Both the position numbers and the translations under genes were made by a program. Below, piece after piece: positions 2,089 to 15,200 of a DNA stretch of 30,932 nt. Below the pieces are notes generated by a model. The model was not told the DNA's origin. It saw only the letters and a program-made list of their open reading frames with translations, and did not search any database. The stretch covers positions 1 through 30,932 of the forward strand of contig CANROQ010000001.1 of the NCBI GenBank assembly GCA_947632295.1. Direction: 5' to 3'. Every line of letters begins with the position of its first letter. The stretch's first letter is position 1. This stretch comes from an uncultured Bacilli bacterium (GTDB taxonomy: Bacteria > Bacillota_I > Bacilli_A > RF39 > UBA660).

Positions 2089-3216
2089 CTATTTCAATTT
2101 TAATTGATTGTAACATTTATCAAACGCTACTAAAAATTTATCAATATCTTCATCAGTCGTTAAATATGATAAACTAATACGAATACTCGAAGACGCACGC
2201 TTTTCATCATGAGTTAAAGCAAAGACCGCCTTTGATTTTGCATTATTACTAGAACAAGCACTTTGCGTAGAAATATAAATATCATATTCTTCTAAAGCAT
2301 GAAGCATCGTTTCAGGTTTTACGCCTAAAATACTTAAATTTAAAATATGTGGTAGACAATACTCATTACTATTAATAGTAACATCTAAATATTTTGCCAT
2401 ATGCTCAACTATTTTTTTATTTAAACTGCCTACATAATCATAATTATTATTTTTAAATATTAACCTTAAGGCTTTCGACATCGAAGCAATCAAGGATGTA
2501 GTTGGAGTTCCACTACGATAGATTGTCGTACTTTTACCACCATGAATTAATGGTTCTAAATTGATACCATCTTTTTTTATTAAGCATCCTATACCTTTGA
2601 TACCATAAAATTTATGAGCAGAAAAACTGGCCAAATCAACATTTTCAAAAAAATTTTTAGAAATTGGATATTTACCAATACATTGAGTTGCATCGGTATG
2701 AAAAAAACACTTAGGATACTTTTTTAATAATTTACCAATTTCTTCGATTGGTTGACGCAAACCTAACTCACTATTAACAGCTGAAATACTAACCAATACT
2801 ACCTCATCATCGATTAAATTTTCTAACGCCTTTAGATCAACTCTACCATAATTATCTAATGGAGTAAAAATAACCTCAAAACCTAATTTTTGCAAATACC
2901 CCAGCGGTCCATATATCGATGAATGTTCTAATTCAGTCGTGATAATTTTTTTACCACGATTTTGATATTGTAAAGCAATTCCTTTTATCGCTAAATTATT
3001 TGATTCACTTGCCCCACTTGTATAAATAATTTCTGATTCTTTAACATTTAAAAGTTCAGCAATTTGTTTGGTAGCGCCTTCAATTAAATTTTTACTAGCA
3101 ACACCTAATTTATGTAAAGAATTAGGATTACCTATAAATTCTAAAGAAACTTTATTAAAAGTGTCTAATACATCAGTATTTACAGGCGTCGTTGCTGAAT
3201 AATCTAAATATGTCAT
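2089..3216 (-). CDS. iscS: Cysteine desulfurase (IscS/NifS family, class V aminotransferase)
   Basis: YLDYSATTP, FTSGASE-like YTSGASESNN, SAHKFYG PLP lysine, RSGT, catalytic SACSS. Confidence 0.92.
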   Translation of the reverse strand: MTYLDYSATTPVNTDVLDTFNKVSLEFIGNPNSLHKLGVASKNLIEGATKQIAELLNVKESEIIYTSGASESNNLAIKGIALQYQNRGKKIITTELEHSSIYGPLGYLQKLGFEVIFTPLDNYGRVDLKALENLIDDEVVLVSISAVNSELGLRQPIEEIGKLLKKYPKCFFHTDATQCIGKYPISKNFFENVDLASFSAHKFYGIKGIGCLIKKDGINLEPLIHGGKSTTIYRSGTPTTSLIASMSKALRLIFKNNNYDYVGSLNKKIVEHMAKYLDVTINSNEYCLPHILNLSILGVKPETMLHALEEYDIYISTQSACSSNNAKSKAVFALTHDEKRASSSIRISLSYLTTDEDIDKFLVAFDKCYNQLKLK

Positions 3217-3231
3217 GTTATCACCTTTTAA

Positions 3232-3259
3232 ATTATATCATATTAATTATTATTTTGAA
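3232..3259 (-). promoter_or_regulatory. Promoter of the iscS operon
   Basis: Minus strand TTCAAA-16 nt-TATAAT with an extended -10 TG, upstream of AAAGGTGATAAC-ATG. Confidence 0.55.
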
Positions 3260-3350
3260 TATAAAATAATAGTAATACTTTTAAATTTCATAAATTTATC
3301 ATATTTTTTGAACAAATTTCGATATTTTCGAACTTTTTTCAAAAAAGGTA

Positions 3351-9768: not shown

Positions 9769-11772
9769 ATGAAAAATAAAAATCATAATAAAAACTATGA
9801 CAATATGGAAACCTTTAACGATATCATGAGTCGAAATGATCGAAAGAATTATCAAAAATTGTTAAAAGAAGAACAACAAAATAATGAAAATAAGCAAGAT
9901 ATTAAAGAAGAAATCAAACATGTAGAAAATAAACAACCAAAAGCAATTGATAAAGAAATAATACATGAATGTAAAACAAAAAAATCTATTGGTCTTATCA
10001 TTTTTTCAATTATAAGTTTAATTTTAAGTTTAGGTTATTTAGGTTTCAATTTAATTTTTGCAAAAGACGAAATTAATAATACTTTTTTAATTGTTAATGC
10101 TTCTATTTTAGCCTTGTTTGCTTTATTTTTAACATTAACAATGATTATAAGTAAACTAAAAGTTAAAAATATTTTAGGAATATTTACATCTATCATCTTT
10201 TCAGGATTTATTATTTTTAATTTTTTAGTTGCTAAAGATATTATCAACCTACCTACTCAAGCCTTATTAGAAAATTTTACTGGTAAATCTATTACAGAAG
10301 CATTAAAGTGGGCTAAAGAAAATAATATTGATGTAAAACAAATTTATGAATATAGTGATAATATTTTGGAATATAACATCATAACCCAAAGTGTATCACC
10401 TAACACATTATTAAAAAAAGTAGATGAAATAACATTCACCGTATCGTATGGTCCAAATTATGATAAAATTGTATCAATTCCTAATATGGTCGGTTGGGAA
10501 ATTGATTCAGCTATTAAAACAATAAATGAAAATTTTTTAAACAATGTTAATATCGAATATGAAATAAACGATGAGGTTAAAAAAGATATAATTATAAATC
10601 AAAGTACTAGTGGTCAAATTAGAAGAAATGATGAATTGACACTTACCGTATCATTAGGTCGTGAAGATGAATTAGAACCAGTTGAAATGATTAATTTACA
10701 AGATAAAAGTTTATTTGAAGCAACTCTTTGGTTAAAAAGACATGGTATTAAATATGAAATAGAATATGTTTTTTCAGATAAAGTAAAAAAAGATTTTGTC
10801 GTTGGTCAAAAAACAGAAGTTGGAGAAATGGTTGATCCAAAAGAAGATACAGTAACACTTGTCATATCTAAAGGTAAAAAAATAATAGTTCCTGATTTAA
10901 CAAAAATGACAGTTGATGAAGTTACAACTTGGATTATGGAAAATAATTTAAAAGTAAGCTTTGAGTCAAAATACGATTCTTCAATTGAAGCTGGAAAAAT
11001 AATTGAAGCAGATTATAGCGAAAATGATGAAGTTGAAGCTGGTACTATTATTACTGTCACAATTTCAAAAGGGCCTTTAAAAATGCCTAAATTTAATAAT
11101 GTAACCGAATTTAGAAATTGGGCTAATAGTAATTCAATAGAATATCGTGAAGAATATGAATTTAATGATGAGATAAATAATGGAGATATTATTAAAACTA
11201 TTCCAGAAGCTGATACAGTCATTAATTATTCCGATACTATTATTATAAAAATTTCTTATGGAAAACCAGTTACTATTCCAAACTTTATTGGAAAAAGTCG
11301 TGGTGAAATCGAAAATACTTGCTATAATATCGGATTAAATTGTACATTCTATTATAACGGTTATTCTAATACGCCTTATGATATCGCTCAAAATCAAAAT
11401 AAAGTAGAAGGAGCACAAGTTGTAAGTGGAACTTATGTAAGTATTGGTTTAAGTAGCGGTCCAAAACCTGCTGAAAACAATCAACCAAATAATGATAAAC
11501 CACAAGAAAACCCACCTACTAATCAATGTACAAGTACTGAACAACATAGATTAAAAATTGAAAAAGATTGGATTATGGGTGGTTCTGCCCAAGCTACAAT
11601 TAATACACTAACACAAAAATTGAAAGAAAAATATCCTAATGTTAAATTTGATTTTGGAAAAGATAGTTGTAATCTCCCAGCTGGTTATATATCAGAAAAA
11701 TCTCCAATTACAAATAATTCGACAATAAAAGATTGTCAAGATAAAGCATATACAATTATTGTTTGTGAATAG
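9769..11772 (+). CDS. Membrane protein with about six tandem PASTA domains and no kinase or PBP domain
   Basis: About three N-terminal TM helices, then repeated (V/I)PN(F/L)xG...II.Q...(V/I)S.G units; AGGTGAT SD. Confidence 0.85.
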   Translation: MKNKNHNKNYDNMETFNDIMSRNDRKNYQKLLKEEQQNNENKQDIKEEIKHVENKQPKAIDKEIIHECKTKKSIGLIIFSIISLILSLGYLGFNLIFAKDEINNTFLIVNASILALFALFLTLTMIISKLKVKNILGIFTSIIFSGFIIFNFLVAKDIINLPTQALLENFTGKSITEALKWAKENNIDVKQIYEYSDNILEYNIITQSVSPNTLLKKVDEITFTVSYGPNYDKIVSIPNMVGWEIDSAIKTINENFLNNVNIEYEINDEVKKDIIINQSTSGQIRRNDELTLTVSLGREDELEPVEMINLQDKSLFEATLWLKRHGIKYEIEYVFSDKVKKDFVVGQKTEVGEMVDPKEDTVTLVISKGKKIIVPDLTKMTVDEVTTWIMENNLKVSFESKYDSSIEAGKIIEADYSENDEVEAGTIITVTISKGPLKMPKFNNVTEFRNWANSNSIEYREEYEFNDEINNGDIIKTIPEADTVINYSDTIIIKISYGKPVTIPNFIGKSRGEIENTCYNIGLNCTFYYNGYSNTPYDIAQNQNKVEGAQVVSGTYVSIGLSSGPKPAENNQPNNDKPQENPPTNQCTSTEQHRLKIEKDWIMGGSAQATINTLTQKLKEKYPNVKFDFGKDSCNLPAGYISEKSPITNNSTIKDCQDKAYTIIVCE

Positions 11773-11795
11773 GCAAAAAAATTGCCTATTTTTTT
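11768..11795 (+). terminator. Intrinsic terminator of the PASTA gene
   Basis: AATAGGCAA-aaaaa-TTGCCTATT followed by a T-run. Confidence 0.8.
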
Positions 11796-11833
11796 ATAAA
11801 TACGCAATATTTGATAATTTTTTACTTGTTCGC

Positions 11834-11862
11834 TTGTTTTAATATATTACAAATTGTATAAT
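11834..11862 (+). promoter_or_regulatory. Promoter of the small peptide (putative toxin) mRNA
   Basis: TTGTTT-17 nt-TATAAT, about 70 nt before the ATG at 11931. Confidence 0.6.
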
Positions 11863-11930
11863 ATTATAGGAATATTTAGTTAGCTTAGGTACTATTCTCC
11901 TTTACTTTTAAAGTGGAAGAAGGTGAAATT

Positions 11931-12023
11931 ATGAGAAAGCAAGAGCAATATCTTTGCACAATCATAATACTCCTTATTATCGTGATTTTTATCATTTTAA
12001 TAAAAATAGTACCAACTGTATAA
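11931..12023 (+). CDS. 30-aa single-TM peptide, putative type I toxin (MRKQEQYLCTIIILLIIVIFIILIKIVPTV)
   Basis: GAAGGTGAAATT SD in the style used across this window; basic N-terminus plus a long hydrophobic stretch; own promoter and terminator; convergent antisense unit. Confidence 0.7.
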   Translation: MRKQEQYLCTIIILLIIVIFIILIKIVPTV

Positions 12024-12033
12024 GTCGGTACTA
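12000..12033 (-). terminator. Terminator of the antisense RNA
   Basis: Minus-strand RNA UAGUACCGAC-UUAUACA-GUUGGUACUA (10 bp including a G-U pair that is an A-C mismatch on the plus strand) followed by UUUUUAUU. Confidence 0.7.
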
Positions 12034-12048
12034 ACACAAAATTTTTTT

Positions 12049-12090
12049 GGAATAGTACCTAACTCTTCAAAACTAGGTATTCCTTTTTTA
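12049..12090 (+). terminator. Terminator of the peptide mRNA
   Basis: GGAA(tag)TACCTA...TAGGTA-TTCC bulged hairpin followed by a T-run. Confidence 0.6.
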
Positions 12091-12117
12091 TTATATGCAA
12101 GTTTCCTTGACATATTA

Positions 12118-12146
12118 ATAATATCATATTTTACAATCTTTGTCAA
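12118..12146 (-). promoter_or_regulatory. Promoter of the antisense RNA
   Basis: Minus strand TTGACA-17 nt-TATTAT with an extended -10 (TGa). Confidence 0.7.
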
Positions 12147-12250
12147 AAATTTTGATAATATCATAAATATTAATAATTACAAAATAATATTTATTTTTAT
12201 ATACGAATTTATGAAAATACTTTTATAATAAAAACCAAATTTTAAATATT

Positions 12251-12276
12251 AAAAGAGGATTAGCGAATCCTCTTTT
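12251..12276 (-). terminator. Terminator of the glucosaminidase gene (possibly bidirectional)
   Basis: AAAAGAGGATT-agcg-AATCCTCTTTT, an 11-bp perfect stem at the stop codon. Confidence 0.8.
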
Positions 12277-15200
12277 ATTCAACTATCATCAAAATTCTAT
12301 ATCGATTATTTTTATCAACTTTAAATGAATACTTTTTATTATTTTGAACAAATGTAGTATTAATTTTTCCATTGAAAACATCTTGTAACTCTCCAAAGTC
12401 AGATACATTTGAACTAGTCGCAACATTAATAGAATAAGTTCCTTTTGGTATATTTGATACATCTAATGTTGCATTATACCATGCTCTAGTTTTATCAAAA
12501 CCATCTGGCACTCTTAACTCTACAGTGTATTCACCATTATCAATACTACCAATATCATAAGTAAATTTCTCGAAAGTATCAACATTTTCAAAATATAATG
12601 TTCTTTTTACATTTGTATTTGCTGCATAATCACCACCAATAATATGTGAAACACCTTTTATAACTAACTTGCTATTTTGAAAGTCAATTGTATCATATTC
12701 ATTATAAATATTATATCTAGAATTGGCATTTTTTTCACTAACAAAATCATCTCTAATAAATAATTGAATTGGTACTTCACGACTATCATAATTATTTATA
12801 ATCAATGCATTTTTATTTTTTCCTTTAAAAAATGGAGCCATTTCAAAACCAAATACATTAGAAACAATACTTTCAGCAACTTTATTATCTGCTAATGCAG
12901 CCACTGACAATGTATAATTACCATTAGCTAAACTATCGATATCAATATTACCTTCAAACCACGAATATGTATAATTAAATCCATTTTCAGATTCTATTTC
13001 AAAAGGCATATCATCTTTTTTTACAATTCTATTTAATTTTTGAGTTTTTATATTACCTTTTTCATCAATTAGACGCAATTCATATTTAATATCAGTATTC
13101 AAATCATTATTAATTCCTAAAATTTTTAAATAACCTTTTATTTGTAATTTATTATCAACATTTTTTAAATATTCGAAATCAAATTCTCCATCAGTATTAG
13201 CTTTTAAAACTTTATCACTAGAACTTTGGTTATTATTAGAATCAGATTTATCTCCAGTAGATGGTACATTATTATTAATACCAATTATTAATTTAACAGT
13301 TTTACTAACACTAAAATTACTTTTATCTTTTACTGTATAAGTTACACTATATTCACCAGGTACATTAAAATCAGCATTAGTATCATATGTTAATCTTGAA
13401 GTAATATCGCCATCTTCTGTATCACTAGCAGTTACATCTTTTAATAAATTAACATTATCTCCAACTTTTATAGTTATATCTTTAGCATTAATAGTTGGTT
13501 GAGAATTTGAAACATATAAATCAGATGCTTTTACATAACCATAACTATATTCACGATTATAGTTATCAGTTACTATATTTTTATTTTCATCTAAACCAAT
13601 TTCCGTATAAACTTTATACCACCAATTATTATTAGCCTGAATTTTATCTAACACTATTAATGGAATATTAATAACATCTTCTGTATCATTATTTACATTA
13701 TAAATTTGTTTAGAATTTTCATTTGGTTCAGCATAAACGAAAATATCACTACTACCTACTTTAATTCCTATTGTATTATATAAATAATCAGCTTTACCAT
13801 AAGAATTATCAGCAAAGAAATAATTTTGAGCAGCTTTTTCACCCCAATATGGATCTGATGCATACATAACGTTCATACCACTACCCTTGTTTCCATAATG
13901 TGTTCCATGATAATATGAATGGTTTGGATTATTATAATTTTCACCTGTTAGACGAGCATGTTCATAAATTGAATCACTGATAGATTTATATGTTGTAGCA
14001 CAGCCAAATGGACAACTATCATAAGCATTATGACCAAATAAATTATTTTTAGCAAACGCTAAAGCACTAGTACCAGTTGCACTTTCATTAATTGCGGCTG
14101 AAAATGTAAGCAAAGCATTTACACCATATAACTCTTGACTAGCAATAAAACTTGCACCTTCACCTACCATTTGTGAAATACCATTTCGATTGATGCCACC
14201 GATAAAATTACCATTATCATCGACATATTTTGTATCGGCAGCTGGTTTAGAATAATAACCTTTTTGCTCAATAATATAATTTAAGTCATCAGCCGTATAT
14301 GATGTTTGTGAACGATTAGGTAAATATAAATAATAAGCAAAGAATGGATTATTTTTATTGATAGCGTTATCATAATTATCATTTTTATAATCATCTAACA
14401 TTTTAATTAAATCATCATAAAAGTAATTTCCATCAAAACTATAATATATTTTATAGGCAGTTAAAAAATCTGGAGATGGTCCTAAATTAGTATAAGTCGA
14501 TGCTTCTACACCTGAAGTATTATAAGCAAAATAATGCAATAAATTTCCTGTTTCTCCCCAATTTTGATAATAAGTTTTTAACCCTGTTTCAACATCTTCA
14601 GAAATTCCATTATCAACATTAGCTATCCAACCATCGCGACCATTGTACCATATTTTATACCAAGTAAATCCGCCATTTTCCTTTTTTTCAGTATAAGAAA
14701 ATATTTGACCACTGACTACATAACCTATGTAATTACTACTAGAACTAGCATCTTCTCGAACATTTAAAGCATCCTTAATATTTTCATTAATTCTTAAATT
14801 ATTGGTATATAACTTTGTAATTGGAACTATATTTAAGTAGTCACCAGTAGAATCACCCAAATCAGCCCAACCTGTAAAACCACTAATTTTTAATTTAACA
14901 CGATTAGTATTTGGATCATAATCAATAAAAGCAGCATCTAGGCCATAAGATGGATGAGTATATGTATAGTAAACGCTACTTGTCGATGTTTGATATAAGT
15001 TAATAGTTGTATCTCTTGGATTAAATTTTACCATAGCGTATTTAGCATTAATAAGTTTACCATTTCGATATATAACTGCTACTTTCGAAGCATCAGACTT
15101 ATGTTCATTCATTTTTTGTTTAGCTTCATTATAATCAGTATATTTTCCAATTTCGGTTAAACTACCATCTTTATTTAATTCGGAAACGACATATTCAACC

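Follow-up and report, generated by a model that had tools for sequence, protein, structure and literature searches.

The described systems closest in layout to the locus analysed here are bsrG/SR4 and txpA/RatA, both of which belong to the families with an antisense RNA on the 3' side (PMC8594479). In bsrG/SR4, which is located on the SPbeta prophage of Bacillus subtilis, the Shine-Dalgarno (SD) sequence of the toxin mRNA is held in a helix, and the duplex formed by the two RNAs is degraded by RNase III (PMC8309996). In txpA/RatA of B. subtilis and sprG/SprF of S. aureus, the two genes are arranged tail to tail and the 3'-side antisense RNA overlaps the end of the toxin ORF (PMC8594479). At Fst-type loci the two RNAs interact outside of their overlap (PMC8594479), and the Fst peptide is characterized by the motif APxxxGxxx and a charged C-terminal tail (PMC8309996). 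[quoted passage not shown]

Here we analyzed a locus in a stretch of 30,932 nucleotides (the window) from the genome of an uncultured Bacilli bacterium, the assembly of which is 1.06 Mb in size, has 25% G+C and is 81% complete. The source of the window is rabbit-gut DNA metagenomes, and searches for sequencing runs turned up DNA metagenomes of rabbit and other guts but no RNA run. Between two convergent cell-wall genes of the window lies a cassette of about 330 bp (positions ~11834-12146), with a layout that agrees with the one given for type I families of Gram-positive bacteria in PMC8594479 and PMC8309996. The cassette is a real, unannotated gene pair and represents a new family of the type I toxin-antitoxin kind, which is itself known, with a function that we infer. 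Probably, though not with certainty, it acts as a self-contained type I toxin-antitoxin-like unit.

Gene signals of the cassette and its peptide

The cassette is situated in the gap from 11773 to 12274, in which there is no gene call. The first-pass annotation had claimed two complete convergent units in this gap, and every feature on its list, the SD sequence included, was found at the place given for it. The features are collected in Table 1.

Table 1. Positions of the cassette features and of the two flanking genes in the window
Feature	Position	Strand	Description	Basis
PASTA gene	9769-11772	+	667-aa product with six PASTA repeats	
Toxin mRNA promoter	11834-11862	+	−35 TTGTTT (11834-11839), 17-nt spacer, −10 TATAAT (11857-11862)	sequence read
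Predicted toxin mRNA	11869-12090	+	about 222 nt, from G11869 to the T-run	
Panhandle 5' arm	11869-11899	+	pairs with 12049-12083	folding
5'-UTR anti-SD	11897-11903	+	CUCCUUU	pairs with the SD in nascent-transcript folds
Shine-Dalgarno sequence	11919-11925	+	GAAGGTG, 5 nt before the ATG	sequence read
Peptide gene	11931-12023	+	30 aa, stop codon included in the span; charged N-terminus and one transmembrane helix (predicted)	
ORF-internal segment	11961-11975	+	AUCAUAAUACUCCUU, predicted to pair with AUG and SD	
SL3 terminator	11999-12033	-	stem 12033-12007, U-run 12006-11999; toxin stop codon in the loop	scan
Predicted antisense RNA	11999-12111	-	about 112 nt: SL1, A-rich linker, SL2, linker, SL3 terminator	
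Dual-use segment	12049-12089		antisense SL2 (-); 3' arm of the mRNA panhandle and T-run terminator (+)	
SL1	12096-12112	-	antisense 5' hairpin CAAG-GAAA-CUUG, directly after the predicted start at ~12111	
Antisense RNA promoter	12118-12146	-	TTGACA (12146-12141), 17 nt, TGaTATTAT (−10 at 12123-12118)	
Glucosaminidase/SH3 gene	15373-12275	-	1032-aa product	

The minus-strand promoter was the best match in a scan of 2 kb, agreeing with the consensus at 11 of 12 positions and carrying the TG in addition. An extended −10 element was seen in the antisense promoters of all 83 cassettes that were scored, and in 66 of these 83 the antisense promoter outscored the toxin promoter, being nearer to the consensus. 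For the plus-strand promoter the earlier claim held as to position, but the −35 element agrees with the consensus at only 3 of 6 positions and a generic scan did not list this promoter. The block 'cgcTTGTTTt ... TATAAT' was found again in other cassettes. The TG of the toxin promoter directly abuts TATAAT and is not of the canonical TGn form. Two different types of toxin promoter occur within one of the peptide subfamilies described below (subfamily A), which suggests recombination between cassettes.

As to the terminators, the minus-strand stem had been described as perfect on that strand only, and indeed its single G-U pair becomes an A-C mismatch on the plus strand. The plus-strand terminator needs to be read with more reserve than before: a hairpin (12049-12083) and a T-run (12084-12089) are present, but the hairpin is weak locally and its stretch folds better on the minus strand, and in the mRNA the same stretch pairs with the 5' end instead. 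The predicted RNAs overlap from about 12000 to 12090, in agreement with the proposed overlap of about 90 nt at their 3' ends, and the predicted antisense RNA matches the final ~90 nt of the mRNA with perfect complementarity.

The peptide gene has its ATG at 11931 and its stop codon ends at 12023, and the product is the one that had been quoted. For comparison, 114 distinct cassettes were fetched, which comprise at least five peptide subfamilies, A to E, with peptides of 24-31 aa. Each of these peptides starts with a short charged segment, continues with about 20 hydrophobic residues and often ends in K or KK. In subfamily A, nearly all intact copies encode 30 aa, of which 16 residues are invariant; the charge lies at the N-terminus, and the sole proline is residue 28. 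A single helix covering residues 3-29 was predicted by AlphaFold2 with a pLDDT of 90.5. In each subfamily the length of the ORF is constant in nearly all intact copies and an SD sequence is always there, and in four of the five subfamilies the ORF is the most conserved segment. When the variable columns were summed across subfamilies, 63, 39 and 77 of them fell on codon positions 1, 2 and 3 respectively; with U at position 2 specifying hydrophobic residues, a low variability of this position is to be expected of a transmembrane peptide. The first-pass annotation had made its reading depend on conservation of the ORF at homologous loci, and the ORF does show coding-type conservation there, with one transmembrane helix predicted. 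A protein encoded by the opposite strand was rejected, because the lengths of the longest minus-strand ORFs vary from 13 to 81 aa within subfamily A; the 55-aa minus-strand ORF of the window is not conserved.

It had also been proposed that the peptide may belong to a new family, and the searches of Pfam, NCBIfam, PADLOC, Rfam and PDB agree with this proposal. Six peptides compared with Pfam and NCBIfam at E<=1 gave no family match, PADLOC gave nothing meaningful, and a profile search of PDB returned a chance match only. When the window was searched against Rfam at E<=10, the matches were at chance level (for example, GibS with 22 bits against a threshold of 115 bits) and no antitoxin RNA was among them; five other cassettes searched at E<=0.1 gave only a tRNA. 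Full-text searches of the literature brought up no account of loci of this kind in these bacteria. In addition, a subfamily-A profile was run against 1.84 billion representative proteins and returned 10 entries, all of which are mis-called ORFs extended at one end, showing that gene callers almost never report the peptide.

Distribution, neighbouring genes and decay of the family

Further cassettes were found in the genome from which the window comes. Its contig 2 carries three tandem copies 475 bp apart, the first of them 5'-truncated, which encode a different peptide of 25 aa, and its contig 89 carries a further cassette with a third peptide. The conserved block that follows the mRNA terminator was found in at least 118 stretches of species-representative genomes, and among the matches listed nearly all are from uncultured gut Bacilli or 'Tenericutes' MAGs of rabbit, mouse, chicken, goat and human. 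One of the host genera, Ca. Faecimonas, belongs to order RF39, family CAG-611 according to Gilroy et al. (PMC8035907). Of 401 host-family genomes, 123, representing 91 of 214 genera, carry a 19-nt core of this block, the antisense 5' motif, with 1-11 copies each, which means up to 11 copies in a genome of about 1 Mb. A reversed control pattern of this motif gave 1 match, and none of the 137 genomes searched from the rest of the class, which represent 25 other families, has the core. From the other side, the subfamily-A toxin half alone was found in 31 of 251 host-family genomes, and a convergent promoter lies beside all of the 21 intact subfamily-A toxin genes found in this way (20 scored by script and 1 by eye; genes cut by a contig end were excluded). 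Most cassettes were found via the antisense 5' motif, an ascertainment that inflates the apparent conservation of SL1 and of the antisense −10 element as well as the excess of antitoxin-only remnants.

Comparison of copies from many genomes revealed 60-90% identity within the unit and ~30% in the flanks, and in subfamily A the similarity begins at the toxin −35 element and ends just past the antisense −35 element. An identity of ~30%, as seen in the flanks, is the background for sequences of such composition. At the PASTA/glucosaminidase junction of four congeners, the genes are 45-100 nt apart and the cassette is absent; a fifth congener has the cassette. The cassette is a discrete unit with presence/absence polymorphism. 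The comparison of copies shows that its features are selected and not due to chance.

The 131 ORFs that adjoin cassettes represent 108 Pfam families, mostly housekeeping. Among them, integrases, transposases and phage proteins are neither recurrent nor enriched, there is no recurrent partner gene, and genes for immunity, export or modification do not recur either. No match to the cassette was found in phage records, plasmid records or IMG/VR. The neighbourhood bears on the possibility that the product is a leaderless secreted peptide, bacteriocin- or PSM-like, which acts against competitors and for which the antisense RNA is a brake on expression. The peptides are short, cationic and hydrophobic, have no signal peptide and occur in several diversified subfamilies per genome, as might be expected of such a product. 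Besides the want of recurrent immunity, export and modification genes, however, the peptides are almost uniformly hydrophobic instead of amphipathic and have no match in Pfam or NCBIfam, and we hold secretion against competitors to be extremely improbable.

Several decayed copies retain the antisense gene and lack either the start of the toxin gene or the entire 5' half. Examples are a 16-nt deletion of the SD/ATG region in locus L185 and a number of 5'-truncated orphans. These patterns of decay fit an addiction module. An alternative is that the cassette encodes a small, non-toxic membrane protein under antisense control, i.e. a benign modulator that acts on the envelope or on some membrane protein and the level of which is tuned by the antisense RNA. 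Gram-positive bacteria have many small membrane proteins that play regulatory roles. Moreover, the gene pair as such is well supported, and the cassettes sit among housekeeping genes and not among mobile elements, all of which would suit a modulator of this kind. On the other hand, the variable number of copies, the tandem arrays, the patchy presence, the decay and the antitoxin-only remnants are typical of selfish toxin-antitoxin loci. A benign modulator would also leave the diversity of the neighbours without a fixed partner, the systematically stronger antisense promoter and the predicted silencing of the mRNA in several redundant ways (see below) unexplained. We consider a benign role unlikely, if still worth keeping in mind, and prefer to regard the peptide as a putative toxin.

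Structure of the two predicted RNAs

The predicted toxin mRNA has a minimum free energy of -66.7 kcal/mol (z = -7.4 versus shuffles), and in this fold the ~30 nt at its 5' end and the ~35 nt at its 3' end form a panhandle. In all five subfamilies the cognate panhandle duplex has a predicted energy of -30 to -36 kcal/mol, versus -9 to -25 kcal/mol for non-cognate duplexes between subfamilies, and the panhandle covaries between subfamilies. In 78 of 85 cassettes (these cassettes are related, so that p-values overstate the evidence in this and the following counts) it is stabler in the plus-strand RNA than its mirror is in the minus-strand RNA, with 2.3 versus 1.0 G-U pairs. This plus-strand bias argues against inverted repeats at the level of DNA.

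Inverted repeats of DNA are what would be expected if the cassette were a non-coding repeat, MITE- or REP-like, or just a convergent promoter/terminator pair, in which case the ORF would be incidental and the pairing would reflect terminal inverted repeats. Such a reading finds some ground in that the cassette is a short multi-copy unit with presence/absence polymorphism and without a gene call, and in that two of its segments are inverted relative to each other. However, these segments are internal, since conservation runs about 35 and 60 nt further, into both promoters, and DNA repeats would show no bias towards plus-strand pairing with G-U pairs. In addition, the fixed length of the ORF, the constant SD sequence, the low variability of codon position 2 and the lack of transposase or integrase enrichment nearby all speak against a non-coding repeat, which is very unlikely in our judgement. 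A MITE in particular was rejected on the strand bias of the panhandle.

The antisense RNA is predicted to fold into three hairpins (z = -4.2), a layout that is common to all five subfamilies. SL1 is almost invariant in the copies ascertained by the motif; in copies found from the toxin side, the stem CAAG/CUUG is replaced by UGAU/AUCA or GGAG/CUUC and the GAAA loop is kept. In SL2, an alignment of 71 antisense RNAs showed compensatory double changes in 6 of 8 pairs. Here 98% of the cells are paired; sliding the partner column lowered this to 21-35%, and none of 500 shuffles reached the observed score. The minus strand is favoured for the SL2 segment in 74 of 85 cassettes, with its G-U pairs on the antisense strand. 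SL3 was not aligned across subfamilies by MAFFT, and the evidence for it consists of a strand bias, the minus-strand form of the region being the stabler one in 59 of 85 cassettes with homologues that carry G-U pairs existing only on that strand, and of a terminator hairpin in 84 of 85 antisense RNAs. For the region of the SD hairpin in the mRNA, 75 of 85 cassettes favour the plus strand. Strand bias is absent in subfamily B in the two tests where it was checked. These comparisons support a strand-specific structural selection on both RNAs.

The segment targeted by the apical loop of SL2 coincides with an exposed internal loop of the mRNA panhandle. Its predicted unpaired probability over 85 cassettes is 0.85, and that of the rest of the last 45 nt of the mRNA is 0.27. 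The 5' end of the mRNA resembles the sequence of the antisense RNA and does not complement it; both of them pair with the 3' UTR of the mRNA.

We then consider the translation start. In the model of the window mRNA, the AUG is paired with codons 11-13 in all states once this part of the ORF is transcribed, and the SD sequence is mostly paired, at first with the 5'-UTR anti-SD and later with the CUCCUU inside the ORF. The ORF-internal segment that would pair in this way is nearly invariant in the subfamily-A alignment, wobble positions included. The unpaired probability of the SD sequence was 0.17-0.32 across all modelled states (nascent, full-length and antisense-bound), and the 5' end was clamped only in the finished transcript. 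Averaged over 85 cassettes, the SD core was unpaired with a probability of 0.19, the AUG with 0.15 and the 5' end with 0.09. Thus no 'on' state is predicted, the SD and AUG being buried in the nascent, full-length and antisense-bound models alike. Predicted SD access in the window mRNA was 0.32 with and 0.29 without the antisense-binding region blocked; since antisense binding leaves it unchanged in the model, a translational effect like that of bsrG/SR4 finds no support there. An alternative pairing of four sites was predicted for the nascent window transcript. Pairing of site 1 with site 2 is possible in subfamilies A-C, where the cognate combination has an advantage, and this advantage is little in D and E, so that the four-site scheme is partly supported by the models. 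The toxin mRNA is predicted to be folded into a translationally inert form, a prediction backed by covariation and strand bias.

Proposed action and comparison with described systems

Our preferred reading, a type I toxin-antitoxin-like unit, would work as follows. A moderately strong promoter would give rise to the mRNA of ~222 nt, encoding the single-helix membrane peptide that is presumed to be the toxin. The primary transcript would be translationally inert, its 5' end being clamped to the 3' UTR in a panhandle of ~30 bp, and it would be silenced further by pairing of the SD with the anti-SD and of the AUG with codons 11-13. From the near-consensus convergent promoter, the antisense RNA of ~112 nt, presumably the antitoxin, would be made in abundance. 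The apical loop of its SL2 would contact the sole exposed internal loop of the mRNA panhandle, and pairing would then spread over about 90 nt and open the 5'-3' clamp. The long duplex would be cut and the mRNA broken down, in the way that RNase III acts on bsrG/SR4 and txpA/RatA. Consequently, the peptide would be made only once the short antisense RNA runs out. The anatomy of the unit and the selection on it are in silico results, and in this scheme we infer transcription of the unit, toxicity of the peptide, neutralisation by the antisense RNA, decay triggered by the duplex, and a step that makes the mRNA translatable.

A more far-reaching version of the scheme is that the cassettes form a modular, mobile family of addiction elements peculiar to one lineage of gut Bacilli with reduced genomes, whose ends recombine around the toxin/SL2/SL3 cores. 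The 'constant' ends would then be the two promoters and the GNRA-capped SL1, and the cores would be interchangeable, so that mutually orthogonal toxin-antitoxin pairs would coexist within one genome. Since SL1 is not part of the stretch that is complementary to the mRNA, it could dock a host factor (RNase or chaperone) which sets the turnover of the antitoxin. No transposase of its own would be needed for the cassette to spread. Taken as a whole, this modular version is rather improbable in our estimation.

As a putative toxin-antitoxin family, the cassettes add hundreds of loci in a large, uncultured gut lineage of small genomes. The five subfamilies retain one RNA design with changed sequence and so form a natural covariation data set, which addresses how a toxin mRNA is silenced, how an antisense RNA finds its target and how paralogous pairs avoid cross-talk. 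The family could also yield compact, orthogonal RNA regulators.

With respect to the class, type I loci have a small (<60 aa) hydrophobic membrane peptide on a dedicated short mRNA, which is predicted here as well, together with a cis- or trans-encoded antisense RNA gene complementary to the toxin mRNA, which is indicated here by the gene signals. The tail-to-tail type I architecture that had been claimed for the window is present and is conserved across the five subfamilies.

The cassette resembles bsrG/SR4 in its small single-transmembrane peptide, its convergent, 3'-overlapping cis-antisense RNA and its SD sequence, predicted to be buried. It differs in the peptide, which has 30 aa here versus 38 aa and has its charged end at the N-terminus, and in the antisense RNA, which at about 112 nt is shorter than SR4 (about 180 nt). 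The 5'-3' panhandle and the conserved GNRA-capped 5' hairpin are unlike bsrG/SR4, and the cassettes are not on prophages, whereas bsrG/SR4 is on SPbeta. Homology to BsrG was not found, there being no relation in Pfam, NCBIfam or PDB; the two are set apart by these library searches.

With txpA/RatA and sprG/SprF the cassette shares the tail-to-tail layout, and the expected mode of action is likewise duplex-triggered mRNA decay. The searches gave neither a toxin match in Pfam or NCBIfam nor an antitoxin RNA match in Rfam that would place the cassette in these families. The peptides are roughly half as long as TxpA (59 aa), and the antisense RNA is much shorter than RatA.

With Fst/RNAII (par of pAD1) and SprA1/SprA1as, the cassette has in common the convergent RNAs and the helical membrane peptide of ~30 aa, as well as a structured 5' end and a sequestered SD sequence in the toxin mRNA. 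The difference from Fst is that the complementarity here is the 3' overlap itself. Furthermore, the Fst motif and the charged C-terminal tail are absent from the subfamily-A alignment, and there is no Pfam match.

Finally, the predicted silencing of the mRNA recalls Gram-negative type I systems. In hok/Sok and aapA/IsoA, a long-distance 5'-3' interaction keeps the full-length mRNA inert, and metastable structures form during transcription. The antisense RNA of the cassette would target the 3' UTR, in contrast to the 5' region or translation start that is targeted in these systems, and the peptides are unrelated; the likeness lies in the 5'-3' panhandle, which covaries, and in the alternative pairing of site 1 with site 2 that is possible in subfamilies A-C.

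Flanks of the window cassette

The gene on one side of the cassette encodes a PASTA-repeat protein with an N-terminus rich in lysine and glutamate and with hydrophobic segments. No kinase or transpeptidase domain was detected by Pfam in this 667-aa protein. On the other side, the cassette is separated from the terminator of the glucosaminidase gene by a highly A+T-rich spacer, a counterpart of which is absent from the junctions of those congeners that do not carry the cassette.

Features of the window flanks and of other cassette loci in the same genome assembly (G000)
Feature	Location	Strand	Details
PASTA-repeat protein	window 9769-11772	+	667 aa; six PASTA repeats
A+T-rich spacer	window 12147-12274		~125 nt; between cassette and glucosaminidase gene terminator
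Glucosaminidase gene terminator	window ~12252-12277		aaaagaggattagcgaatcctctttt
Tandem subfamily-B cassettes (L002/L003/L005)	contig 2, 12813-13810		three copies; 475-bp spacing; 25-aa peptide
Subfamily-C cassette (L004)	contig 89, ~2990-3300		
Lone subfamily-A antisense terminator hairpin (L006)	contig 3, 16966-17020		

Other cassettes and a probable remnant

On the toxin side, the first copy of the subfamily-B array no longer has a promoter, an SD or a start codon, but its antisense gene is retained whole. The antisense 5' hairpin (SL1) of the subfamily-C cassette carries a different loop (GCAAG-UGAC-CUUGC); therefore, tallies based on the 19-nt SL1 motif undercount the cassette family. The lone hairpin on contig 3, which is probably the leftover of a cassette, lies close to a putative tRNA-gene-like stretch, as judged by eye. 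At another cassette locus, L032, a tRNA (752-825, Rfam match) immediately follows the cassette.

Stop codons and promoters within subfamily A

In three database ORFs (P0001, P0006 and P0007), the subfamily-A peptide extends beyond its normal stop (e.g. ...IVPTV-S-VGTN...), the stop codon within the antisense terminator loop having been lost in these copies. The toxin promoters of this subfamily also vary. When loci L040, L107 and L118 were compared with the window, L009 and L041, two unrelated promoter blocks were found, the first being 'cgcTTGTTTt...TATAAT' and the second having 'tgtttgaTATAAT' or 'tgtttggTATAAT' as its 3' end. Because both blocks drive the same peptide subfamily, this sequence comparison suggests that promoters have been swapped among cassettes.
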